64,000 nucleotides of DNA from contig JBFMDQ010000002.1 in assembly GCA_040753955.1 (NCBI GenBank), positions 6,592 to 70,591 on the forward strand, read 5' to 3'. This DNA comes from Nitrospirota bacterium (GTDB lineage: Bacteria; Nitrospirota; Thermodesulfovibrionia; Thermodesulfovibrionales; SM23-35). The position numbers and the translations under genes were made by a program. Positions 3,429-55,350 of the stretch are shown in pieces. The notes beneath the pieces are model-generated. The model had not been told where the DNA came from. It saw only the letters and a program-made list of their open reading frames with translations, and made no database searches. Positions within the stretch are counted from its first letter, which is position 1. Each line of letters begins with the position of its first letter.

Positions 3429-5180
3429 TTAAAGTTCAAGACTTTTATCTCTTATTTTATCTTTTGTTATCCCTATAAATTTTTCTATTGTGAAGGGCCC
3501 GATGTTTTCGCCACTGCGCTTCCTGACGGTTACCCTCTGTTCAGAAACTTCCCTATCGCCTATTATAACCAGATATGGCACCTTCCTCAAGGTGGCGTTT
3601 CTAATCTTATAGCCGATCTTTTCATTTTCAATATTTAATTCAGTCCTTATACCCTCTGATTTTAATCTTCTCGAAAGGGCCGCTGCATAATCTGAATGCC
3701 TTTCGGAGATTGTAAGGATCTCAACCTGCACAGGTGCAAGCCACAGAGGAAAGGCTCCTGCATAGTGCTCTATGAGTATCCCAAAGAACCTTTCTAAAGA
3801 ACCCATTAAGGCCCTGTGTATCATTATCGACCTGTGATCCTTACCATCACTCCCCCTGTAGGTCAAATCAAATCTCTCGGGAATATTGAAATCAACCTGA
3901 ATGGTGCTACACTGCCATGGCCTATTAAGTGAGTCTTTGACCTTTATATCTATCTTAGGGCCATAGAAGACACCCTCCCCTATATCTACCTCATAAGAAA
4001 GCCCTTTTATCTCGAGTGCCCTTTTAAGGGCAGCCGTGGACCTTTCCCAGTTTTCAAGGCTCCCAACGTATTTTTCGGGTCTTGTAGAAAGGCAGATTTC
4101 ATAATTCTCAAAACCAAAGATTCTCAGTATGTAAAGGGTAAACTCAAGCACACCCAGTATCTCATCCTCTGTCTGGTCCTCCCTGCAGAATATATGCGCA
4201 TCATCCTGCGTAAAACCCCTGACACGCAGAAGGCCATGAAGCACGCCCGAACGTTCATATCTGTAAACAGTTCCCAACTCGGCATACCTGATCGGCAAGT
4301 CTCTGTAACTTCTCAATGAAGTTTTATAGACATGGATATGAAAGGGACAATTCATGGGCTTAATTTCGTAGTCCATCCCCTCAACTTCCATAGGGGAATA
4401 CATGTACTCACTGTAAAAGTCAAGGTGGCCACTTTTCTGCCATAACTGGAGCTTTGCTATATGGGGCGTATAAAGGATTTTATAACCTGCCCTGTAATGT
4501 TCATCTGACCAGAAATCTTCTATAGTCCTCCTTATCACCGCGCCGTTTGGGTGCCAGAGGATAAGGCCGGGCCCTATCTCTTCGTTGATGCTGAAAAGAT
4601 CAAGTTCCCTTCCGAGCCTCCTGTGGTCACTCTTCTTAACCTTTTCTAAGAAATGAAGATATTCCTCCAAATCCTTCTCATCTGTAAAGGATGTCCCATA
4701 AATCCTCTGAAGCATCTTGTTTTTCTCACTTCCACGCCAATAAGCACCCGCAATACTAAGCAATTTAAAGGCTGTGACCCGGCCCGTTGATTCTATATGC
4801 GGTCCTTTACAGAGGTCTATAAATCCTCCTTCCTCATAGAGGGTTACCTCATGCTCCTCCATCTCTTCGAGAAGCTCAACCTTATAATCCTCGCCCATTT
4901 TTTTAAACAGCTCTATCGCCTCTTGCCTTGAAATGATTTTGCGCACAAAGGGATTGTCCTGTTTTGTTATCTCCGACATCTTTTTTTCTATCAAGGCGAG
5001 GTCTTCTGGTGTAAAGGATCTGTCTATATCAAAATCATAATAGAAACCCTCATCCGTAGCAGGACCTATTGCGAGTTTTGCATCAGGAAAGAGCTCTTTC
5101 ACAGCGTGAGCCATTATGTGGGATGTGCTGTGTCTGTAAATCTCCCTCTCTTCCTTGAAATTAAAATTAATAACCCTTAT
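3429..5180 (-). CDS. thrS: threonine--tRNA ligase lacking the N-terminal TGS domain; start codon uncertain
   Basis: Editing-domain motif RHSTSHIMAHAV, class II motifs (YRYERSGVLHGLLRVRGFTQDDAHIF, GSLERFFGILIEHYAG) and an anticodon-binding C-terminus. The first ATG (5114) lies inside the HxxxH motif. The frame is open only up to the TGA at 5183-5181. Confidence 0.9.
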   Translation of the reverse strand: MRVINFNFKEEREIYRHSTSHIMAHAVKELFPDAKLAIGPATDEGFYYDFDIDRSFTPEDLALIEKKMSEITKQDNPFVRKIISRQEAIELFKKMGEDYKVELLEEMEEHEVTLYEEGGFIDLCKGPHIESTGRVTAFKLLSIAGAYWRGSEKNKMLQRIYGTSFTDEKDLEEYLHFLEKVKKSDHRRLGRELDLFSINEEIGPGLILWHPNGAVIRRTIEDFWSDEHYRAGYKILYTPHIAKLQLWQKSGHLDFYSEYMYSPMEVEGMDYEIKPMNCPFHIHVYKTSLRSYRDLPIRYAELGTVYRYERSGVLHGLLRVRGFTQDDAHIFCREDQTEDEILGVLEFTLYILRIFGFENYEICLSTRPEKYVGSLENWERSTAALKRALEIKGLSYEVDIGEGVFYGPKIDIKVKDSLNRPWQCSTIQVDFNIPERFDLTYRGSDGKDHRSIMIHRALMGSLERFFGILIEHYAGAFPLWLAPVQVEILTISERHSDYAAALSRRLKSEGIRTELNIENEKIGYKIRNATLRKVPYLVIIGDREVSEQRVTVRKRSGENIGPFTIEKFIGITKDKIRDKSLEL

Positions 5181-6057: not shown

Positions 6058-6984
6058 ATGCGTATAGTATTCTTTGGCACCCCTGAATTCGCTATCCCTT
6101 CAGTTAAGGCGCTGTTGCAGTCAGAAGAAGAACTCGCTGCAGTGGTGACACAGACTGATAAAAGAACGGGAAGAGGTCGCATAGCCTCCCCTCCTCCTGT
6201 CAAGGAATTCGCTATGCAGCGGGGGATCAAGATTTTACAGCCGACAAGTATGAAAGACCCTGCCTTTCTCAATGAGCTTTCAGTTATGGAACCTGAAATC
6301 ATCGTTGTTGTTGCATATGGGAAGATATTGCCTACCCAGATTCTCAACCTTCCCCCTCACGGCTGTATAAACGTACATGCATCCCTCCTTCCAAAATACA
6401 GGGGGGCTGCCCCAATTCAGTGGGCGATAATTAATGGTGAAAAGAAGACAGGGATAACCACAATGCTCATGGATGAAGGACTTGACACAGGTAATATCCT
6501 CCTACAGGAAGAAACAGAGATATCTAACGAAGATAATGCAGAGACCCTCGGAAAAAGGCTATCCGAGATAGGCGCATCTTTATTGATTAAAACAATAAAA
6601 GACATAAAGGATGGTTCTATCAAACCCATCCCACAGGTGGGGACCCCAAGTTATGCCCCTCCCTTTAAAAAAGGAGATGGAAGGATTGATTGGTCAAAAA
6701 GTGCAACAGAAATATTTAACTTTGTCAGAGGTATGTATCCATGGCCCTGTGCCTATTGTTATTTAAATAAAGGGAGGATTAAAATTACTAAGGTAAAGGT
6801 TCTCGAAGGTTTAGGCATTCCCCGCAGGGTAGAGAAGGTGAGCAAAGGAGAACTTGTAGTTGGTGCAGGTAATGGATTAGTCTCAATAATCGAACTTCAG
6901 CCTGAGGGTAAAAGGTCGATGTCTGCCGCAGCCTTCTTACAGGGGAGGAGATTAGAAAAGGGGATCTTTTTTGATGAGCCGTAG
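6058..6984 (+). CDS. fmt: methionyl-tRNA formyltransferase
   Basis: MRIVFFGTPEFA N-terminus and HASLLPKYRGAAPIQWAIING motif. It follows def. Confidence 0.95.
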   Translation: MRIVFFGTPEFAIPSVKALLQSEEELAAVVTQTDKRTGRGRIASPPPVKEFAMQRGIKILQPTSMKDPAFLNELSVMEPEIIVVVAYGKILPTQILNLPPHGCINVHASLLPKYRGAAPIQWAIINGEKKTGITTMLMDEGLDTGNILLQEETEISNEDNAETLGKRLSEIGASLLIKTIKDIKDGSIKPIPQVGTPSYAPPFKKGDGRIDWSKSATEIFNFVRGMYPWPCAYCYLNKGRIKITKVKVLEGLGIPRRVEKVSKGELVVGAGNGLVSIIELQPEGKRSMSAAAFLQGRRLEKGIFFDEP

Positions 6985-27159: not shown

Positions 27160-27305
27160 TCTATCCATTGCCCTTCCAAGTGCCTACGAGGTTAGCTGTC
27201 GGGCTCGGGCTTGGAAGTGCCCTATTCCCGGTTATCCGGGAAACACGCCCCAATATTGGTTCCCCCGTATCCATCTCTAAATGGATTTCGGCTGCTATCC
27301 AGTCA
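27160..27305 (-). ncRNA. c-di-AMP riboswitch (ydaO/kimA class) in the kup leader
   Basis: Minus strand contains ACGGGGGAACCA ... GGGGCG ... CCCGAGCCCGACAGCUAACCUCGUAGGC. This closely matches the conserved ACGGGGGACCCA and CCCGAAUCCGUCAGCUAACCUCGUAAGCG blocks of the B. subtilis ydaO element as I recall them. It lies upstream of a K+ transporter gene, the usual context. Confidence 0.8.
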
Positions 27306-29861: not shown

Positions 29862-29887
29862 AATGCAAGACCCTCTAATTTTGTATT

Positions 29888-30019
29888 TGCAGGATATAGT
29901 ATTTGAGCGGTTTCTTTTGCCGATAGTCCGATAAAAAATATTTTAAAAATCTTAAATAATAAAGAGGCAAAAGCCTCGGAGGGCGATAGCCCGAGAATGA
30001 GCGAAAATACTATATCCTG
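29888..30019 (+). repeat. modular two-hairpin repeat element, copy B
   Basis: Termini GCAGGATATAGTATTT ... AAATACTATATCCTGC. Internal layout GAGCGG - TTTTGCC..GGCAAAA hairpin - CCTCGGAG - GGGC-GATA-GCCC hairpin - CGAGAATGAGCGAAAATAC. Confidence 0.8.
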
Positions 30020-30075: not shown

Positions 30076-30663
30076 TCATAATTTCCCCTTTGTCGTCGGA
30101 ATACCCTTTATCCTCGGATCAATAGATACGGCATTTCTCAGTGCCCTTCCCAAGGCCTTGAATATCGCCTCAATTATGTGATGTGTGTTTCTTCCATACT
30201 GGGATTCAACATGAAGGGTTATGCCACTATTGCTAACAAATGCTTGAAGAAAGTCCTCAATAAGGTCGGGGTCAAAATTTTTTATCTTACTTTTCTTCGG
30301 GAATTCAACCTTATAGACAAGATAGGGCCTTCCACTGATATCAAGACTCACCGACGCAAGGGCCTCATCCATCGGAACTGTTGCCTGCCCAAAGCGTGAT
30401 ATCCCTCTCATATCTCCAAGGGCCTGTTTAACAGCCTTTCCGAGGACAATACCAATATCCTCTACCGTGTGATGAAAATCTATATGGATGTCTCCTTTTG
30501 CCTTCATCTTCATATCAAAAATACCGTGTTTACACATTAAGGACAGCATATGGTCAAGAAAGGGTATAGATGTATCAATAGAGTATTGCCCCTTCCCATC
30601 AAGATTGATAGTAAGCTTGATATCCGTCTCCTTCGTCTTCCTTTCAACTTTAGCCGTTCTCAT
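30076..30663 (-). CDS. hisB: imidazoleglycerol-phosphate dehydratase
   Basis: [11 protein letters not shown] and [12 protein letters not shown] motifs; 195 aa. Confidence 0.95.
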
Positions 30664-30804
30664 TTTGCCTCTCCATTGATAGAATTATAACAGATTAGAG
30701 TCCTACAGAGGAGACTGTATGCAAATCTTCTGAAGCGTTGAGACATTTATCCTTTCCTCCTCCAATCTCTCATCTATAATAGGTAGTGGCGAAAAAATCT
30801 TCGA

Positions 30805-31551
30805 TTAATATTTAAAAATGGGAACAGAGCGCTTTTTGATATTGTCCAATACAAAGGGATAGGCTTCGAGATATTCGATTTCAAGCTCCTCGGTAGAGAT
30901 TCCGAGTCCTTTTAATTTTCTGCTCAGCTCTTCGATTCCCTTGGAGCCAAAGATCTCGAGCATAATAGCAGGCCATGCATTCACCCCTGCATCAAGAAGA
31001 TACTTCAAGGCCCTGAGGGGAAATTCAAAATACCCCCCTTCTGCTCCCGAAATTTTCTCAAAGCTCTGTTCATCCCATCCTTTGACGGAAATACGAACAA
31101 AGAGCCTCTTGAAAGGAGAGAGCCTCTGGGCAAGATTCGGACGATATCCCAAGATGAAGCCATTGGTCTCAAGGATGAAATCGAGCGTTGGCTTCTCTGA
31201 AAGAACTCCCTCGATTATCTTGATGATATGTTCAAAAGATTTCTCACCCAGAATGGGTTCTGCGCCGCTCAACCTTACCTTGTTGAAATCTCTCCTCTTA
31301 CAGATATCCAGAAGCCTTCTTACCACTTGCTCAGAGGAACAAAACTCCTCTTTGCACTCCTCGGGTTTCATATTCCTTTCATAATTCCAGCAGTAGGCAC
31401 AGAGAAAGCAACATCCCACCATATCAGCGGTGGCAATGCCTCCATAATATCTTGCTCCCCTGAAACGATAATACTTCCTTTTCTGATCTCTCATAACGAG
31501 GTTTTCGACCTCTTCTGCCCGTTTTACAGGATCGAAAGGAAGTTTAAGCAT
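30805..31551 (-). CDS. small radical SAM protein of unknown function
   Basis: CxxxCxxC cluster in GCCFLCAYCWN, preceded by YYRFRGARYYGGIATAD; 248 aa. I cannot tell the substrate. Confidence 0.7.
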   Translation of the reverse strand: MLKLPFDPVKRAEEVENLVMRDQKRKYYRFRGARYYGGIATADMVGCCFLCAYCWNYERNMKPEECKEEFCSSEQVVRRLLDICKRRDFNKVRLSGAEPILGEKSFEHIIKIIEGVLSEKPTLDFILETNGFILGYRPNLAQRLSPFKRLFVRISVKGWDEQSFEKISGAEGGYFEFPLRALKYLLDAGVNAWPAIMLEIFGSKGIEELSRKLKGLGISTEELEIEYLEAYPFVLDNIKKRSVPIFKY

Positions 31552-31595
31552 TTTATACCTTAGCCCAATTATTCATAAATTAATTAAAAAGTCGG

Positions 31596-31706
31596 TAGGA
31601 CATAGTATTTGAGCGGGTTTAAATTCTTTCAAAGAAAGAATTTACCTCGGAGCCCCGCACTATAACATAGTGCGGGGCGAGAATGAGCGAAAATACTATA
31701 TCCTGC
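31596..31706 (+). repeat. modular two-hairpin repeat element, copy C
   Basis: AGGACATAGTATTT-GAGCGG - TAAATTCTTTC-aaa-GAAAGAATTTA hairpin - CCTCGGAG - CCCCGCACTAT-aac-ATAGTGCGGGG hairpin - CGAGAATGAGCGAAAATACTATATCCTGC. Confidence 0.8.
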
Positions 31707-32270
31707 CTGATTCGCTATAGTTTATGTTAGAGCATATTTCCTTTATCCTACATTCATCACAATATCTTCTGCGACAAAAAGCCTATCCAGAATGTAGGAG
31801 ACAGTTTGAACCCATCCAGCGAGTATTCTTAGTTTTTCTCTTGCGAGGAGACAGAGACATCTTTCTCTCTGTGGACACTCTGGACAGGTATAAATCCTGC
31901 AGAACCTTGGATCCCAGGGGATTTCCCACTAAAAGAGGCTGAGCTTTTTCGTCATCCTCTGGAAATGTATATCTGATCTCCTTTCCTTTCAACTTCACTA
32001 TCATGAGGCAAAGCCTTTGCTAAACCTTATTGAAATTTGGCTTAAAACTTAAGTCCAATCCTAAATTTCGGAAGCTTTTTCATATTCTTTCTTGTGTACA
32101 GCAGTTTTCTCTAAGAAAAGCAATTATAGTAGATGTGTTGAATACCTGGGGTAAGGTGAAGATAAAGATGAGGAGAAACTGAGGCAAAAAGAGGATCAAG
32201 GAGTAGTAACTCCGATGCTGGCACAAAAGGCATTCCATTTAGTCTTTCTCATCTGTTGTCTTCTCCTTGC

Positions 32271-34163
32271 TCATTTTTGAAAGACTATTATATCTTCAAC
32301 CCCAATCTTACCTTTATCCGCCTTTGACAATCCATGCTCGATAACATCAACAACTTTGAATCCGGCAGATTTCCCTATGTCTGCTAATATTGAAGATGTT
32401 TCTATGACCTCTTCCTTACCATGGATAAGCCATGAGTGATATTTACTGATAACCATAAGATAGTATTTATTCCTTTTCAAAACTCGATAACACTCCTCAA
32501 ACGAAAGGGTCATCATCTTGAGATAATTTTCAACTATTTTAGATTTATAGACCCTTCGAGATTCATTCAGCAGTTTTATAAGATTTAAACTTGATGGTGG
32601 TAATTGGATTGAAAAATATTTATCACTGACCATAAGCGGTAACTGCTCCATATATTCTGTTTCATCCCTGTGCTTTGATTCATAGAACATCTTTGTGGAC
32701 TGCCACATTAAATCCTCATCAAACCCAAGAACCAAAATAGAAGGTTTATTATTCCCAATGTAATCCAGTGCATCAAAATAGGGAGGAGAAGTAAGGATGC
32801 CGTCTATGGAATTATCAGGAATCATTGACATATTAGTTGAGTCACCTTTAATGATCGTTACTTTAGTTTTTGTAAAATCAACTCCCAAAATTTCTCCTAA
32901 CTTTCTTGTGGCATAAAGTGTCAAGTATCTATCTTCCACGTAACTTTTAAAAGCTGTCATTATGTCATAAACCTTTTTCTTTTCTGAAAACTCTATAACT
33001 TGCTGGCTTAAAAGGATATGGAGGAACTTTTTTATAGAAGGGTTTTGAAAGCGGTCTATCTCTTTCTTAATAAATAAAATTTTTGGAAGGTGTTGTGCAA
33101 TATTCTCATATGCCTTACCATTTCCAGATTTCATTTTAGCCTTTATATTTTGCAATTCATCAGTTATGACATCTTTTTCATAGCGATCTATTGACTCAAA
33201 TAATTTAATGACATGGTTTTTAAGCTCAGGTAATGAAATACCTAAATTGCATTTTACTTCAGTAATGGTTTTCCCAATACTTAATATTTCTATACCAATA
33301 GCATTTATCCCCATAGTTGGGGCATCAGCGATAAATGCCCCAGAACCTACAAAAGGGTCTAATATTGTATCCCCCTCTTTAACATTGAGTAGATTTATCA
33401 AAGCACGAGATATCCTCGGGTCTCCTTTCCCTTTATATTTGTGGAGGTAATGAAGAAAAGGCTTTCTCAGGTCTGTAGATGCCCAGTCAACAAAGTCTCC
33501 TATGTGGTTTTTCCCTAGTCCAAAGTGAGGTGAACGATGCTCTCCTCCCTGCATATGAACAAGCAATTCATTAATCCCTTTTTCAATACCTGCCTCTTTT
33601 TCATCAAAATAAGCCCTCCAATCTACACTATTTTTAGGACGGAATACAGCAGCAGGCAGTTTTTTAACTTCTGTAGCATATTCAAAGAGTGTGTGAAATG
33701 GAAGAAATCTAATAGTAGCAAGTACTTTATCATCTTTAAGAGGCTTTAAGAATAGTTGGGAGTACGGATTTATATTTAAGGATTCATGTTGCAAATTAAT
33801 ATCGCTTACTTTTAATCCAATCTCAAAAAGTATAGATTTGATCTCATCCACAGTTTTGACTTCAAAAATAATATATATTTCTCTTAAAAATGTTGCTTTC
33901 TTGACAATGCCTATAATCTCACGGACGGGTATTTTCGCAAACAGGCCCTGTCCTTCCCCAAGATAAGGCAATCGAGATATTAAATGAATTACATTGTCAT
34001 CAAGCAAACTAAATGGCTTTTCTCTCATCAAAGCAGCAATTGTTTTTATAAAGGCCGTCTTTACTTCTAATAATGCATCAAATTCCTTCTGAGCAAAATA
34101 GACTTCATCAGGGTCCCTTAAATCAAACTTTATTTTTCCTAACCAAAGTAGCTTGTTCACCAT
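32271..34163 (-). CDS. 630-aa amino-methyltransferase with a Trm11/THUMP-like N-terminal region and widely separated catalytic motifs
   Basis: SAM-binding motif I ILDPFVGSGAF (aa 267-277, nt 33333-33365) and catalytic TSPPY (aa 458-462, nt 32778-32792) lie ~190 aa apart. The segment RISRALINLLNVKEGDTILDPFVGSGAFIADA resembles UPF0020/Trm11-type MTases. Its start overlaps the upstream MTase gene by 41 nt. Confidence 0.75.
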   Translation of the reverse strand: MVNKLLWLGKIKFDLRDPDEVYFAQKEFDALLEVKTAFIKTIAALMREKPFSLLDDNVIHLISRLPYLGEGQGLFAKIPVREIIGIVKKATFLREIYIIFEVKTVDEIKSILFEIGLKVSDINLQHESLNINPYSQLFLKPLKDDKVLATIRFLPFHTLFEYATEVKKLPAAVFRPKNSVDWRAYFDEKEAGIEKGINELLVHMQGGEHRSPHFGLGKNHIGDFVDWASTDLRKPFLHYLHKYKGKGDPRISRALINLLNVKEGDTILDPFVGSGAFIADAPTMGINAIGIEILSIGKTITEVKCNLGISLPELKNHVIKLFESIDRYEKDVITDELQNIKAKMKSGNGKAYENIAQHLPKILFIKKEIDRFQNPSIKKFLHILLSQQVIEFSEKKKVYDIMTAFKSYVEDRYLTLYATRKLGEILGVDFTKTKVTIIKGDSTNMSMIPDNSIDGILTSPPYFDALDYIGNNKPSILVLGFDEDLMWQSTKMFYESKHRDETEYMEQLPLMVSDKYFSIQLPPSSLNLIKLLNESRRVYKSKIVENYLKMMTLSFEECYRVLKRNKYYLMVISKYHSWLIHGKEEVIETSSILADIGKSAGFKVVDVIEHGLSKADKGKIGVEDIIVFQK

Positions 34164-35076
34164 TTATGTATAGCTCTTGTTGATCTAAAGTTAATAAAAA
34201 CTCCTCGATCCGCCTTTCTGCTAACCTTACATACTCTTCATTTATGTCGTATCCAACATAATGACGCTTTGTTTTTTTTGCTGCGATAGCAGCTTGCCCA
34301 CTTCCTATAAATGGGTCTAAAACAACTTCTCCTTCAAAGGTATAAAGTTGAATTAGTCTGTAAGGCAATTCCACTGGAAAAGGAGCAGGATGTCCCACTT
34401 TTGTTGCTGGTTCAGCAGAAAATATCCAGACACTTTTTGTAAATTCAAGAAATTCATCTTTTGAAATTGTGCTTTTTCTTTTTAAACACTCTCTTGTAAA
34501 TGTGCCTTTAGAGAAAACCAAAATATATTCATGAATGTCTCTTAACGTTGGATTTTTAGCAGAAAGCCAGCTCCCCCAGGCAGTTGAAGGACTGCCGCTT
34601 GAGGCTTTGTTCCAGATGATCTCACCTCTCATTAAAAATCCTAAATCGAGCATGTCCTCAATGATAAAAGTATGAAGTGGAATATATGGCTTTCTTCCTA
34701 AATTAGCAATATTAATACATGCCCTTCCACCGGGGACGAGAACTCTTTTAACTTCGCTCCATACCTTTTTTAAAAATGCTCTATACTCATTAAGAGTAAG
34801 ATTCTCGTCGTATTCCTTTCCAACATTGTATGGGGGAGAAGTAACCATCAAATGGATGCTACTGTCAGGTAATTCCTTCATCCGTTCACTTGATTTGCAA
34901 AAGATTCTATCCAGAAATTCAGATGGGATAGGATTTTCTATATACCTTACAACCTCCTCCTTAGGTAATTCATCATATAATCTGCTCGTATAAAAGGAAG
35001 TAGAGTCGTGGTTAATTCTTCCTGGTGATCCAAAAGCACTTGTTTTGGTACCTCTTTTCCTTTGAATAAACCCCAT
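34123..35076 (-). CDS. beta-class N4-cytosine/N6-adenine DNA methyltransferase
   Basis: Motif IV MVTSPPYNVGKEY precedes motif I VLDPFIGSGQAAIAAKK, which is the beta-class order. ATG at 35076 lies 1 nt after the upstream TAA and has a GGAGGGAGG SD; the ORF track starts at 35100. Confidence 0.85.
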   Translation of the reverse strand: MGFIQRKRGTKTSAFGSPGRINHDSTSFYTSRLYDELPKEEVVRYIENPIPSEFLDRIFCKSSERMKELPDSSIHLMVTSPPYNVGKEYDENLTLNEYRAFLKKVWSEVKRVLVPGGRACINIANLGRKPYIPLHTFIIEDMLDLGFLMRGEIIWNKASSGSPSTAWGSWLSAKNPTLRDIHEYILVFSKGTFTRECLKRKSTISKDEFLEFTKSVWIFSAEPATKVGHPAPFPVELPYRLIQLYTFEGEVVLDPFIGSGQAAIAAKKTKRHYVGYDINEEYVRLAERRIEEFLLTLDQQELYINGEQATLVRKNKV

Positions 35077-35077
35077 T

Positions 35078-35710
35078 TTAATCCTCCCTCCAGAGGTCAA
35101 CCCATCTTTTGTAGGAATTGAATGTTATGCTTGTTCTTTTCCAGTGTATTGGAATTTTGAAAGAATCTTTTTCGGTAACCAACCTTGATAAGGCTTCTTT
35201 ACTGAATTCAATGCCTCTCGGATTTGTACCTGGCTTCGGTAGCTTGATATAACCCTCTCGTCCCATTTCCTCAAACACCTTTCTCTGGACATCAAGGGGT
35301 ATCCAATAAAAACCACCTTCATCATCTTTATTTATCTGAATAAGCAGGATGTCACAGCGAGGATAATATTTTTCTCTAAATTCTTTTGCTGATTTAGCAT
35401 CAACAGTCCATGCTATTTTAACACTGCTAAAAGTTTTCCCAGTAAATGTTTTTATTGATATAGGCTCTCCAAACAATTTTACATCAACCTCCGACTTGGT
35501 AATTGGAATCTCTGCTTCTACATTTGCCTCATCAAATTTATACATAAGCAGGGCAACTATTATCCTTTCACGGACAGAACCCACTTCCATCCCCATTCTT
35601 CCAGCCCTTGAACTCTCTAATTCAGCAAGTTGAAATAAATAAGGTAGACGTCTTTTAATCTTCTCAACAAGTTTTTCATCTTCAAACAGTTCTATTAAAC
35701 GGCTACTCAT
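35078..35710 (-). CDS. putative restriction endonuclease partner; family not recognised
   Basis: 210 aa, translationally coupled to the MTase. A possible PD-(D/E)xK-like arrangement is FDEANVEAEIPITKSEVDVK. The call rests mainly on gene context. Confidence 0.45.
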   Translation of the reverse strand: MSSRLIELFEDEKLVEKIKRRLPYLFQLAELESSRAGRMGMEVGSVRERIIVALLMYKFDEANVEAEIPITKSEVDVKLFGEPISIKTFTGKTFSSVKIAWTVDAKSAKEFREKYYPRCDILLIQINKDDEGGFYWIPLDVQRKVFEEMGREGYIKLPKPGTNPRGIEFSKEALSRLVTEKDSFKIPIHWKRTSITFNSYKRWVDLWRED

Positions 35711-35743
35711 AATCCCCTTTTAGGTATTGCTTTTTCAAAGGGT

Positions 35744-36007
35744 TCAAGGAAAAAGAACGTGTAACCCTTTACCTGCTTTGACATAAACCTCCCAAGTGGA
35801 TTTCTCACCAGTTTCAGGTGTAGAAATGTGTTTTACCAGACGTATGTCGGCATCGGTCAAGCTGTAGGTTTGTTTAAGTTCTATCACTCGATCTTTAGCC
35901 CACTCCTGTTTCTCAAAGACGGTTTCCAATACAAAGCCTTCCTTCTGATAACGTTCCCGAAGGGCACGGTCTTCACTAAAACCCTTGGTAACTTCTTGTA
36001 TATCCAT
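35744..36007 (-). CDS. hypothetical 87-aa protein at the head of the MTase operon
   Basis: Intact ORF 33 nt upstream of the putative nuclease gene on the same strand. No HTH or other motif recognised. Confidence 0.45.
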   Translation of the reverse strand: MDIQEVTKGFSEDRALRERYQKEGFVLETVFEKQEWAKDRVIELKQTYSLTDADIRLVKHISTPETGEKSTWEVYVKAGKGLHVLFP

Positions 36008-36102: not shown

Positions 36103-36273
36103 TTAACCCATGATTTTAGATGCCTCTATCACCTCGATGCCGATAAGTTCCCCTTCCCTATCAAAATCTGCATGTGCACCTGGGGTGATTGTAATAGTTT
36201 CTGCTGCCTTTGTTTCAAGTTCTGAAAAATATATATACAGGAGGTCTCTTTCATGATCGTATTCAATCCTCAT
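36103..36273 (-). CDS. DUF2283-like small protein
   Basis: MRIEYDHERDLLYIYFSE...GELIGIEVIEASK is the pattern I associate with DUF2283. ATG at 36273 has an AAAGGAGAAAG SD; the ORF track starts at 36303. Confidence 0.6.
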   Translation of the reverse strand: MRIEYDHERDLLYIYFSELETKAAETITITPGAHADFDREGELIGIEVIEASKIMG

Positions 36274-36438
36274 TATTCTTTCTCCTTTCTCAAAACTTTT
36301 CATATCTTGCTTTAGCAGTTAATAATATAAGCTTTTCAGCTTTATATTTATGATACACTGTAACCTCTTTTTCTTCAAAGAATTTCCCTTCCCATTCTGC
36401 TTTATTCTCAGGTTCATGGTCTAACTAACAGAAATCTA

Positions 36439-37524
36439 TCATTCCTCCTCACCCTGCCATCTCCCATTGCTCACTTCTTTCAAGGCCCTCAGAAAAATCC
36501 TATTCTCTTCAGGCGTCCCAACCGTAACCCTCAGGCAACCATTTACAACACCCTTCATATTCCTCACGAGGACCCCTTTCCTTAGAAGACCTTTATATAT
36601 CCTATCAGGGTCTTTCACTCTGAATAAGATAAAGTTTGCCTCTGATGGATAGGGCTTTATTCCATCTATCTTTGACAACTCATGAAAAAGTCTTTTCCTT
36701 TCTGAAACGATTAATTGTATGTTCCTCTGCATCGCTTTTCTATCTTTCAAAACTTCGATCGCTATTGCCTGAGAAAGAGAATTTAGATTAAAAGGAAGTC
36801 TTACCTTATTCACCTCTCTGACTATTTCTTCATCAGCTATCAGGAACCCAACCCTCAAGCCTGCGAGCCCGATCTTACTCAGTGTTCTCATTATCACGAG
36901 GTTTTTGTAATCTTTTAAAAAAGGCAGAAATCCCTTTCTACTCGAAAAAGGCTGATATGCCTCATCAACTACTACGATAGAGAGTGACAAGGTTGACTCG
37001 ATTATCCTTAAAATCCTTTCTGAGGAAAAACAGTTACCTGTTGGGTTATTCGGTGAGTCTAAGAAGATTAATCTGGGTTTTTCTTTGCGTATTGTCTTAA
37101 GTATCCTGCTAATATCGAGGTCAAATTCTTCATCAAGTGGAATCTCTATTTTCTTCTCTCCAATGGCCTGTGCAATAATTCCGTACATAGAGAAGGTAGG
37201 GACTGGATAAAGAACAGGACCACCAAAAGTCGTAATGAGATAATAAATCAGCTCATCCGATCCATTTCCATGGAGTATATTTCCTGGCCTCACCTCAAAG
37301 TACCTTGAGATGAGTTTCTTTAGAGACTTTGCCTCCGGATCTGGATATCTGTTCAGCCCCCCGAAAAGTCTTCGACTTTTTGGGGACCTCAAACTTGTCA
37401 ATACCTTTGGAGATAATCCATAAGGGGCCTCATTTGCATCGAGCTTAACCTTGCACGTGATCTCCTTTGCCTCATAGGCTTGCAGAGAACATATATTGGG
37501 CCTTACGAGTTTCTTAATATCCAT
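36439..37524 (-). CDS. hisC: histidinol-phosphate aminotransferase
   Basis: DSPNNPTG and the PLP-lysine context TLSKIGLAGLRVGF. Confidence 0.9.
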   Translation of the reverse strand: MDIKKLVRPNICSLQAYEAKEITCKVKLDANEAPYGLSPKVLTSLRSPKSRRLFGGLNRYPDPEAKSLKKLISRYFEVRPGNILHGNGSDELIYYLITTFGGPVLYPVPTFSMYGIIAQAIGEKKIEIPLDEEFDLDISRILKTIRKEKPRLIFLDSPNNPTGNCFSSERILRIIESTLSLSIVVVDEAYQPFSSRKGFLPFLKDYKNLVIMRTLSKIGLAGLRVGFLIADEEIVREVNKVRLPFNLNSLSQAIAIEVLKDRKAMQRNIQLIVSERKRLFHELSKIDGIKPYPSEANFILFRVKDPDRIYKGLLRKGVLVRNMKGVVNGCLRVTVGTPEENRIFLRALKEVSNGRWQGEEE

Positions 37525-38705: not shown

Positions 38706-39875
38706 CTATACAATCTCAGAAAGTGACGGTATCTGCTTGAACTCCTCAGAGAGCTCTTCAGAAACTATAAAAGGTATTATTCCTCGCTTTACGGCACCTT
38801 CCAAATCTTCCTCACCAGTAGCCCGGGCCACAAGATGCTTTTTATCTTTCAGACCTAAAGCCTCAAGCATGGCGTTAAGAATGCCTTTTGGAAAGGCATA
38901 AACGAAAAGGTGCCCTTCAAAGATGCTGAATATGGGTCGGAATTCTATGACCACTCCGGCGCCAAGCTTTTTTGTGGTGAGCATCTTTGAATCGAGTAGT
39001 TTCTCTGTTAGCTTTTTTCTCGCATTCGCAGATGCGCTGAATATCTTTGCAGCCTCTTCAAACAGTTTTGGCACAGAATAGGTCATTAGAGTTCGAGAGA
39101 CGTCGAGCCTGAACCACCATAGGTCATAGCTTAGAAGGGATCTTCGCCGTGCGACATCGCTCAAATTGCCAATAAACATGTTTCGTATGTATAAGAGATC
39201 GGGATAATCGTAGAGAGCTGATGGCTTCTCGTATGCGCACTCTTCTAAAGTCGAGTAAATCTCGGCAATCTTCTTGCCCACCAAGTCCCTGTTGTAAAAA
39301 GAGACCATCCTGTTCAACATGTGATCGTCGATGCTGAAGCCATAAAGCAGTATCTCGGTCCCTTCGACTTCCCTATTAGCCTTGCCCATGAGCACAAATA
39401 TGCGCGGATTATCTGAACCCTTTGGGATTGCAAAGAATTTAAAGACATGATGCCTTGCGAATACATAAACAGGAACATCCTTCAGTGCAAAATGGGAAGC
39501 TGCGAGCTTTAAACCTTCGCCATAGTAGCCTCTCATCCAGCACTCCTTGTCCGTTCCTCCTATGGAGAGAGCCTCAACTTTCAGCCCCCTACCCCTGTCA
39601 ATGATCCACGTGCCTATGCTATCCTTTTTAACGTTAACTTCGGGCTTTCCAGTGATAAGCTCAGCTTCATCCAGTGCATTTTGAACCAGCTCTCTGAGTG
39701 ATTTGAACACGTCGAACCCACGCCTTTCAATATAATCTTTTGTAATACCCAAAGGAACTACAGCATCGTAACGGTCTATAAATTCTTTCAGCTCCTCTGT
39801 TTCCTTTGTCGCCTCCTGTGCTGACAGCTCATCAACCTTTTTTAAGCTATCTATGGATAGCACAGAGGCACGCAT
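38706..39875 (-). CDS. orphan GHKL (Bergerat-fold) ATPase-like protein; start uncertain (ORF extends to 40052)
   Basis: N-box RELVQNALDEAE (nt ~39669-39692), G1 IIDRGRGL and G2 GYYGEGLKLA. The first ~55 codons of the 448-aa ORF are made of CCCCGTTAGAAA-family repeat DNA, so I prefer the ATG at 39875 (MRASVLS). Confidence 0.6.
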   Translation of the reverse strand: MRASVLSIDSLKKVDELSAQEATKETEELKEFIDRYDAVVPLGITKDYIERRGFDVFKSLRELVQNALDEAELITGKPEVNVKKDSIGTWIIDRGRGLKVEALSIGGTDKECWMRGYYGEGLKLAASHFALKDVPVYVFARHHVFKFFAIPKGSDNPRIFVLMGKANREVEGTEILLYGFSIDDHMLNRMVSFYNRDLVGKKIAEIYSTLEECAYEKPSALYDYPDLLYIRNMFIGNLSDVARRRSLLSYDLWWFRLDVSRTLMTYSVPKLFEEAAKIFSASANARKKLTEKLLDSKMLTTKKLGAGVVIEFRPIFSIFEGHLFVYAFPKGILNAMLEALGLKDKKHLVARATGEEDLEGAVKRGIIPFIVSEELSEEFKQIPSLSEIV

Positions 39876-39904
39876 GACAGAAGGAATTTCATATTCTGAA
39901 TAAG

Positions 39905-40023
39905 CCCCGTTAGAAAGCTCGGGTGGGGCTTTAAACCCCATTTTGTATTTTTTACCCCGCCCCGTTAGATGCTTCCTATCTAATAGGGCCCGCCTTTTTG
40001 TCGGAGCTTTCTTTCTAACGGGG
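39905..40023 (-). repeat. CCCCGTTAGAAA/TTTCTAACGGGG repeat element, long copy
   Basis: Minus strand reads TTTACCCCGTTAGAAAGAAAGCTCCG ... TCTAACGGGG ... GAGCTTTCTAACGGGG. The first ~25 nt are nearly identical to the copy at 45187. Confidence 0.7.
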
Positions 40024-40220
40024 TAAATATCGTCCATAGGGTAGTATATCATGCAGCGATAGTAGAAATGTCTTCAGTGCTTCCTTTACAGACTGTCCTT
40101 TTGAGTTTCTGGGATCGACTTCAAATAGAGTTCTATTCTCAATGATATTTTTGATTAGAGTCGAGAGAAAAAATACTCAATGACTTATGACTGATGACTG
40201 ATGAATTTTTACTCTGACTA

Positions 40221-46051: not shown

Positions 46052-46983
<932 letters not shown>

Positions 46984-51043: not shown

Positions 51044-51118
51044 TGGTAGGCGCGAGGGGGATTGAACCCCTGACTTCTTCCGCGTCAAGGAAGCGCTCTC
51101 CCACTGAGCTACGCGCCT
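51044..51118 (-). tRNA. tRNA-Val (anticodon GAC), CCA encoded
   Basis: Minus strand: AGGCGCG-TA-GCTC-AGTGGGA-GAGC-G-CTTCC-TTGACGC-GGAAG-AAGTC-AGGGG-TTCAATC-CCCCT-CGCGCCT-A-CCA. Confidence 0.9.
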
Positions 51119-55275: not shown

Positions 55276-55350
55276 TGGCTGGGGCGGGAGGATTCGAACC
55301 TCCAGATGGGAGATCCAAAGTCTCCTGACTTGCCATTTGTCTACGCCCCA
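55276..55350 (-). tRNA. tRNA-Gln (anticodon TTG), CCA encoded
   Basis: Minus strand: TGGGGCG ... GGAGA-CTTTGGA-TCTCC ... GGAGG-TTCGAAT-CCTCC-CGCCCCA-G-CCA. Confidence 0.9.

Follow-up and report, generated by a model that had tools for sequence, protein, structure and literature searches.

A ThaI-family restriction-modification pair beside a methyltransferase that probably outlived its HinP1I-like partner in a Nitrospirota his cluster

Does a tight group of four genes inserted in the histidine biosynthesis cluster of a Nitrospirota bacterium represent a non-standard modification or defense system, or does it consist of known restriction-modification (R-M) genes that came to lie side by side? 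The group occupies positions 32271 to 36007 of a 64,000-nt stretch of DNA, hereafter the window (assembly GCA_040753955.1, contig JBFMDQ010000002.1, positions 6,592 to 70,591, forward strand). Working from the sequence alone, an original prediction had described an AT-rich operon encoding a small protein, a putative nuclease, and two methyltransferases (MTases), and had put it forward as a candidate non-standard modification/defense system. All four co-directional open reading frames (ORFs) are indeed present on the minus strand: orf87 (87 aa; 36007-35744), the gene for a 210-aa protein (R gene; 35710-35078), a beta-class MTase that we call Mbeta (35100-34123; 325 aa when read from TTG 35100), and a 630-aa MTase that we call M630 (34163-32271). 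The part of the proposal that stands is that the cluster is R-M-like, was acquired horizontally, and is inserted in the his cluster; it is not non-standard. Most probably, it consists of a complete ThaI R-M pair beside M630, the solitary MTase of a displaced HinP1I-like system.

The ThaI-family nuclease and the adjacent methyltransferase

The 210-aa protein, which had been said to match no recognizable nuclease family, is a ThaI-family Type IIP endonuclease, as judged from full-length homology. It matches the Pfam family PF15514 (ThaI) over profile positions 1 to 203 of 203 (E, 4.7e-92), the PADLOC REase_II model PDLC03575 (E, 2.6e-85), and R.ThaI itself (PDB 3NDH) end to end over residues 2 to 209 (E, 4.8e-83). 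The protein collection contains 3,848 clusters of its homologs, to which NCBI gives the name "ThaI family type II restriction endonuclease." R.ThaI, a Type IIP enzyme of the PD-(D/E)XK class, acts as a homodimer and cuts the palindrome CG/CG, with Glu54, Asp82, and Lys93 forming the active site, Met47 intercalating into the DNA, and Trp107 acting as a wedge; in its native host, it is partnered by an N4-cytosine MTase (PMC3025569). When residues are mapped with an offset of -6, after correction for the His tag, Met47, Glu54, Asp82, Ser91, Lys93, and Trp107 of R.ThaI correspond to M41, E48, D76, S85, K87, and W101 of the window protein, so that all six are kept. As predicted from this conservation, the nuclease should be a CG/CG blunt cutter. 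The CGCG tetramer is found 19 times in the window versus 32.4 expected (observed-to-expected ratio [O/E], 0.59; z, -2.65), with an O/E of 0.95 for GCGC; in the pooled ThaI loci, the corresponding ratios are 0.51 (z, -5.6) and 0.91.

The description of the second large protein as a beta-class amino-MTase holds up. Mbeta matches Pfam N6_N4_Mtase over its full length (E, 8.9e-49), with SPPY preceding FxGxG, and it matches the PADLOC MTase_II model PDLC03350, again over its full length (E, 1.3e-138), while two orphan-MTase (oMTase) models score well below the Type II models. Its closest PDB relatives are TTHA0409, the N4-cytosine MTases 8S9M/8S9N, and M.PvuII. The motif TAA-A-ATG at 35080-35074, pointed out in the original prediction, is present in the sequence and places a start codon 1 nt past the stop of the R gene. 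Given this arrangement and a GGAGG 8 nt upstream, translation more likely begins at ATG 35076 than at TTG 35100, in which case Mbeta extends over 34123-35076 (minus strand) and comprises 317 aa. Because CGCG contains no adenine, an amino-MTase that guards this site must produce N4-methylcytosine (m4C), and we infer m4C at CGCG to be the product of Mbeta.

That these two genes belong together is apparent from related loci (numbered with the prefix L). Eleven ThaI loci have enough flanking sequence to be checked, namely, the window, L043, L047-L054, and L058. In all 11, an Mbeta homolog (63 to 86% identity) adjoins the ThaI homolog, the pair being either in tandem or convergent. M630 is not seen in 8 of the 11 (L047-L049, L051-L054, and L058), including three (L048, L054, and L058) whose contigs end within the Mbeta gene, so that the status of M630 downstream is not visible there. 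Since Mbeta stands beside ThaI throughout, and in eight loci without M630, ThaI and Mbeta appear to constitute a self-sufficient R-M pair. The ThaI-like dimer would then cleave unmethylated CGCG in incoming DNA, and Mbeta, translationally coupled via TAA-A-ATG, would keep the CGCG sites of the host N4-methylated.

ThaI was obtained from Thermoplasma acidophilum, and FnuDII, BstUI, and MvnI are its isoschizomers. The pair in the window is a new member of this well-known family. It resembles the ThaI system in the end-to-end alignment of the nuclease, in the active-site, intercalating, and wedging residues that are kept, and in the adjacent amino-MTase. It differs in its bacterial host (a Nitrospirota metagenome-assembled genome [MAG]), in a cleavage site and methylated base that are predicted from sequence, in the 12 additional C-terminal residues that Mbeta gained from a lost stop codon, and in the second, unrelated MTase that follows in the same orientation.

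M630 and its usual HinP1I-family partner

M630 consists of an N-terminal domain of about 240 aa, followed by motif I (LDPFVGSG) at about residue 268, a helical insert of about 140 aa, and SPPY at residues 459 to 462. The match to the DNA methylase family PF01555 is broken into two stretches. In total, 46 PADLOC models match M630, almost all of them Type II MTase models and some extending over residues 241 to 607, such as MTase_II PDLC03224 (E, 7e-22); among the non-Type-II matches is mad2 (E, 8e-8), confined to the motif I region. The likeness to RNA MTases that led the original prediction to consider an RNA substrate is of a different order. UPF0020 (E, 1e-8) and TIGR01177 (E, 1.4e-14) match only within residues 248 to 295, some 48 residues around the S-adenosylmethionine-binding motif I, UPF0020 being restricted to residues 249 to 290. 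The score is 54 bits for TIGR01177, whose cut-off is 316.6, and 23 for the Trm14 model, whose cut-off is 280, and profile searches detected no THUMP domain in M630. The best PDB sequence matches are nonetheless archaeal tRNA m2G10 methyltransferases, and JGI labels homologs of M630 "tRNA G10 N-methylase Trm11." M630 clearly represents a family of Type II MTases, as yet uncharacterized and wrongly annotated as Trm11 by some pipelines.

Full-length homologs of M630 that are 54 to 89% identical occur across many bacterial and archaeal phyla, their hosts including Nitrospirota, Hydrogenedentota, WOR-3, Marinimicrobia, Planctomycetes, Clostridia, Thermoplasmata, and Archaeoglobus, among others. Such a spread at this level of identity points to a gene that moves horizontally. 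The family is common among uncultured bacteria and archaea. A wider superfamily emerged from an exhaustive search of representatives, with full-length relatives that are 25 to 37% identical and possess the N-terminal domain, and many further proteins that share the MTase part only.

To which nuclease does M630 belong? We surveyed 37 unique M630 loci with informative upstream sequence. An intact gene of the HinP1I family (Pfam PF11463) lies directly upstream of M630 in 21 of these and, in the gene calls examined, overlaps its start by 4 nt. A HinP1I-like gene is present but cut by the contig end or possibly frameshifted in three more loci, is displaced by an insertion in one, and is visibly decayed in six (L006/7, L021, L024, L031, L037, and L038), with frameshifts in L006/7, L031, L037, and L024. 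The ThaI pair takes the upstream position in three loci (the window, L043, and L050), and other content is found in the remaining three (L009, L023, and L034). With more than 30 loci carrying M630 in the absence of ThaI and Mbeta, the genes of the window cluster evidently do not form an obligate set.

R.HinP1I of Haemophilus influenzae P1 cuts G/CGC, and the classical M.HinP1I methylates cytosine at C5. The partner of M630 matches R.HinP1I (PDB 1YNM) with an E value of 9.4e-56 and a PADLOC REase_II model with an E value of 8e-68. It keeps D62, K83, the base-reading Q93, K96, and K223 of HinP1I, as well as an aromatic residue at the position of F91. With these residues kept, the HinP1I-like/M630 module is most likely GCGC specific, M630 making m4C; hence, M630 is probably an m4C MTase acting on GCGC. 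This module resembles the HinP1I system in its nuclease, whereas its MTase is a SPPY amino-MTase with an N-terminal domain and a helical insert rather than an enzyme of the C5-cytosine type. A literature search for an m4C GCGC partner of HinP1I-like enzymes returned nothing relevant. If the assignment is true, an amino-(m4C) MTase would for the first time be described as the partner of HinP1I-family enzymes, and M630 would bring with it an uncharacterized 240-aa N-terminal domain.

The window itself differs from the HinP1I arrangement in that the endonuclease is absent and M630 is solitary: tblastn with two HinP1I-like partners as queries detected no HinP1I-like sequence in the 64 kb. This situation is reminiscent of M.Hpy99III, a type of solitary GCGC MTase in Helicobacter pylori that derives from decayed R-M systems (PMC8706393). 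As in those orphans, M630 is intact and under purifying selection after the loss of its nuclease (Ka/Ks against the M630 of L012, 0.054), and the loci with a frameshifted HinP1I-like gene may be regarded as an intermediate stage. The difference is that the nuclease of M630 would have been replaced precisely by a complete R-M module and not merely inactivated. In the window, M630 would probably methylate GCGC without a cognate nuclease, and it would probably be read through from the transcript of the ThaI operon or be expressed from a weak start of its own.

In Nitrospirota, L006 has the HinP1I-M630 module at leuD/leuB, L009 has it at the prephenate dehydrogenase and EPSP synthase genes, and L012 has it upstream of hisB. 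The module or M630 thus occurs in different amino-acid biosynthesis clusters in L006/L007, L009/L010, L012, and the window. The M630 of L009 is overlapped from upstream by the gene for a 402-aa protein without a Pfam, NCBIfam, or PADLOC match, which may be an unrecognized endonuclease.

Turnover between hisC and hisB

The cluster is bordered by hisC (36439-37524) on one side and, beyond a radical SAM gene (248 aa; 30805-31551, minus strand), by hisB (30076-30663) on the other, in agreement with the placement first reported. Its AT-richness, initially judged by eye, is borne out by a computed GC content of 0.362 versus a window mean of 0.420. This places 32271-36007 in the lowest 0.9% of equal-sized segments (standard deviation, 0.0186), and the window minimum is included in it. 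As the original prediction had stated, the scanned neighbor genes include no integrase or transposase, and around the cluster no flanking direct or inverted repeats hinting at a transposon or an integration scar were found.

Comparison with close relatives reveals three states of this one site: HinP1I-M630, ThaI-Mbeta-M630, and ThaI-Mbeta with a scar of M630. The first is represented by L012 (Nitrospiraceae), in which a HinP1I-like gene is followed by M630 (88.9% identical to that of the window) and then, about 12 nt on, by hisB (90%). The second is that of the window. The third is found in L047, where hisC (76%) is followed by a pair of ribbon-helix-helix (RHH) and PIN-like ORFs, ThaI (94%), Mbeta (85%), a remnant of M630, and hisB (91%). 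The remnant comprises 45 nt of the 3' end of M630 (93% identical) with hisB within about 20 nt, which indicates that this lineage once possessed M630 and then deleted it. A further syntenic locus, L058 (Thermodesulfovibrionales), shows Metallophos, DUF2007, hisC (94%), a DUF433/DUF5615 toxin-antitoxin pair, orf87 (83%), ThaI, and Mbeta, within which the contig ends. In the window, a small DUF2283 gene (36103-36303, minus strand; Pfam E, 2.3e-13) marks the edge of the variable islet toward hisC; the same slot holds DUF433 and DUF5615 in L058 and the RHH and PIN-like ORF pair in L047, and the hisC-proximal segment is therefore variable as well.

The junctions are informative about the order of events. 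L043, an Edwardsbacteria MAG, has the same ThaI-Mbeta-M630 junction as the window, located beside the genes for trigger factor and ClpP. Its M630 has lost residues 141 to 438, with R and Mbeta intact. The Mbeta stop and the M630 start of L043 overlap as ATGA, just like the HinP1I/M630 junction of L012. The window has ATGG at this position, and the alignment shows Mbeta reading 12 further codons to the next TGA. The 41-nt overlap of Mbeta and M630 (34123-34163), a feature already recognized in the original prediction, is thus real and is explained by loss of the Mbeta stop codon (ATGA to ATGG). Following this reasoning, in the lineage of the window the ThaI pair would have taken the place of the HinP1I-like gene, with the start codon of M630 as the exact junction, leaving M630 intact and solitary, and a later change of TGA to TGG would have removed the Mbeta stop and created the overlap.

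Other loci combine the two modules differently. The order ThaI-Mbeta-M630 is also that of L050, with a spacer that differs and measures about 100 nt; Mbeta is downstream of M630 in L023; and in L038, a HinP1I-M630 pair in decay has scars of both genes of the ThaI module around it. In the M630 protein tree, the window is sister to the HinP1I-paired L012, and L050 and L023 belong to other clades that are HinP1I paired; with composites in separate clades, ThaI/M630 combinations must have arisen more than once. All three R-M genes are under purifying selection (Ka/Ks, 0.05 to 0.15). Between the window and L047, Ks amounts to 0.23 for the R genes, 1.67 for the adjacent MTase genes, and 0.84 for hisB, and the far lower value for the R genes points to recombination even inside the ThaI module.

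The window alone carries about 1.6 kb between M630 and hisB (30668-32270), made up of a 719-nt non-coding stretch and the radical SAM gene; this segment is absent from the syntenic L012 and L047. It includes a GC-rich hairpin with a perfect stem at 31652-31678 (GCCCCGCACTATAACATAGTGCGGGGC). Its GC content of 0.44, above that of the R-M genes, argues for a separate acquisition. The radical SAM protein has generic family matches only, along with weak matches to viperin models (E, ~1e-4 to 1e-5), and its gene was left outside the system. Taken together, these sequence comparisons identify the hisC-hisB interval as a hot spot of recombination, with different content in closely related genomes. L047 contains two small paralogous zinc-ribbon ORFs (4775-5029 and 6593-6871; 84 and 92 aa with 59% identity) as direct repeats on either side of ThaI-Mbeta; they were considered as a general cassette boundary and rejected, as they were found in no other locus fetched.

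The value of the site is modest and lies in how cleanly it illustrates the natural flux of R-M genes at one chromosomal position. The cluster resolves to known Type II R-M biology, carries little weight for defense discovery, and can be dropped from lists of candidate novel systems. Apart from weak matches limited to motif I and the two lower-scoring oMTase models, the PADLOC models matched are Type II nuclease and MTase models. No model specific to a multi-gene defense system other than R-M was matched, and neither orf87 nor the DUF2283 protein has a PADLOC match. Close characterized Type II homologs of all three large proteins, by which the original prediction would have recognized an ordinary R-M system, exist for the nuclease and indirectly for Mbeta, but M630 is itself uncharacterized. 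Mildly unusual are the amino-MTase partner of HinP1I-like nucleases, the recurrence of CGCG and GCGC modules at shared loci, and the well-documented turnover of cassettes between hisC and hisB.

Competing explanations, orf87, and other features of the window

Several observations weigh against reading the cluster as a ThaI pair next to an unrelated solitary MTase. The ThaI/Mbeta genes and M630 occur together in at least three arrangements (that of the window and L043, that of L050, and that of L023, besides the scars of L038), and such co-location, above what would be expected for unrelated modules, could hint at a functional link. Tetramer avoidance in the HinP1I-like/M630 loci does not discriminate with respect to the specificity of M630 (GCGC, 0.81; CGCG, 0.75). 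The equivalence of Mbeta and M.ThaI is based on adjacency rather than on direct comparison with the M.ThaI used biochemically. Scans for promoter and terminator consensus sequences remained at chance level, the transcription units being deduced from spacing. Finally, the AlphaFold2 model of M630, built from a 14-sequence alignment, has a pLDDT of 58.5 with the catalytic core unmodeled; it is too poor to place the N-terminal domain, and a Foldseek search of the PDB with this poor model gave no match at E of ≤1e-3.

Could the repeated linkage of ThaI/Mbeta and M630 then reflect function? Either a short specificity of M630 or an "immunizing" role of the solitary MTase against incoming HinP1I-type systems might be envisaged, and we consider this improbable as a whole. 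Slightly less credible still is the specific proposal that the specificity of M630 is short or relaxed (e.g., GCG/CGC), so that the enzyme protects against both HinP1I-like and ThaI-like nucleases, which would explain the swaps. The association of the ThaI module with M630 is recurrent and was independently formed, CGCG and GCGC are both mildly depleted in M630 loci, and in L057 (1156-2915), a decayed ThaI homolog adjoins a distant (27% identical) MTase of the M630 superfamily. However, every ThaI locus still has its own Mbeta, the conserved HinP1I recognition residues of the partner point to plain GCGC, and shared insertion hot spots explain the co-location equally well. As for L057, ThaI-type nucleases may sometimes use an MTase of the M630 superfamily as their own partner.

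It seems about as unlikely that orf87 is a controller or accessory subunit of the ThaI system, which would make the cluster a genuine three- or four-gene operon. Such a role would fit the position of orf87, whose end is separated from the R gene by 33 nt in both the window and the syntenic L058, the only loci in which it precedes ThaI. It is, however, absent from the other ThaI loci (L043 and L047-L054), has no Pfam helix-turn-helix (HTH) match, and has a predicted fold without an HTH. Moreover, its homolog follows a HinfI-type R-M system in L061, and in L059 it has VapBC on one side and a DpdB-like gene on the other. Being missing from most ThaI loci and found beside unrelated defense genes, orf87 is better viewed as a resident of defense islets than as part of the ThaI system. 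It is nevertheless a real and conserved small protein of predicted alpha/beta structure: 57 homologs are 57 to 84% identical, none of these 57 with a Pfam domain, and the AlphaFold2 model (pLDDT, 88.4) has the topology beta-alpha-beta-alpha-beta-beta, for which Foldseek gave no match at E of ≤1e-3 in the PDB or viral libraries. Scans of viral contigs for relatives of orf87 and M630 yielded none, so no phage vector was identified.

A cysteine-rich ORF, which we call small82, accompanies these R-M modules in L002 (4912-5160), L047 (4662-4769), L056 (4437-4541), L061 (5406-5591), and L062 (1353-1556), directly downstream of the orf87 homolog in L061 and L062. This suggests that orf87 and small82 form a conserved small-gene pair around which R-M cassettes exchange.

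We attach even less credence to a single three-component system in which both MTases are needed against one nuclease, be it Type IIS-like, as the original prediction had it, strand specific, or directed at the two cytosines of CGCG. The genes are tightly packed in the same orientation, and the order ThaI-Mbeta-M630 recurs in L043 and L050. ThaI, however, acts as a symmetric homodimer on a palindromic site (PMC3025569), and the eight loci noted above present ThaI and Mbeta without M630, three of them ending inside Mbeta. M630 is internally deleted in L043 and deleted in L047 with R and Mbeta kept in both, and it is otherwise paired with HinP1I-like enzymes in at least 21 loci, the composites being polyphyletic. 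Least plausible of all is that M630 is a Trm11/Trm14-like RNA MTase next to R-M genes by chance: the family, structure, and label matches in its favor contend with their restriction to motif I, the DNA MTase profiles and SPPY, and the DNA endonuclease gene that immediately precedes M630-family genes in different phyla.

The ThaI pair beside a solitary M630 thus remains our preferred explanation of the cluster. Other tetramers also deviate from expectation in the window: CTAG is observed 8 times versus 92 expected (O/E, 0.09), GATC 153 times versus 292 (O/E, 0.52), and GGCC has an O/E of 0.67, CTAG and GATC being far more depleted than CGCG. The depletion of GATC and GGCC suggests other active or past restriction pressures in this genome.

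A short non-coding element lies at 29867-30019, between hisB and a HAD hydrolase gene, and is partly duplicated at 31678-31709, by the hairpin mentioned above. It matches an intergenic region upstream of hisC in L047 (2691-2835; 80 to 91% identity) and has no Rfam match at the gathering threshold; it may be an element resembling repetitive extragenic palindromes (REP-like) or a small-RNA element. Just past the Metallophos and DUF2007 genes that flank hisC, a 448-aa ORF (38706-40052, minus strand) has no Pfam match at E of ≤0.01. The window contains tRNA genes at 46052-46127, 51047-51118, and 55279-55350. Finally, a c-di-AMP riboswitch (Rfam RF00379; 87 bits; E, 5e-19) is located at 27166-27303 on the minus strand, downstream of a minus-strand gene for a 320-aa thioredoxin-like membrane protein.

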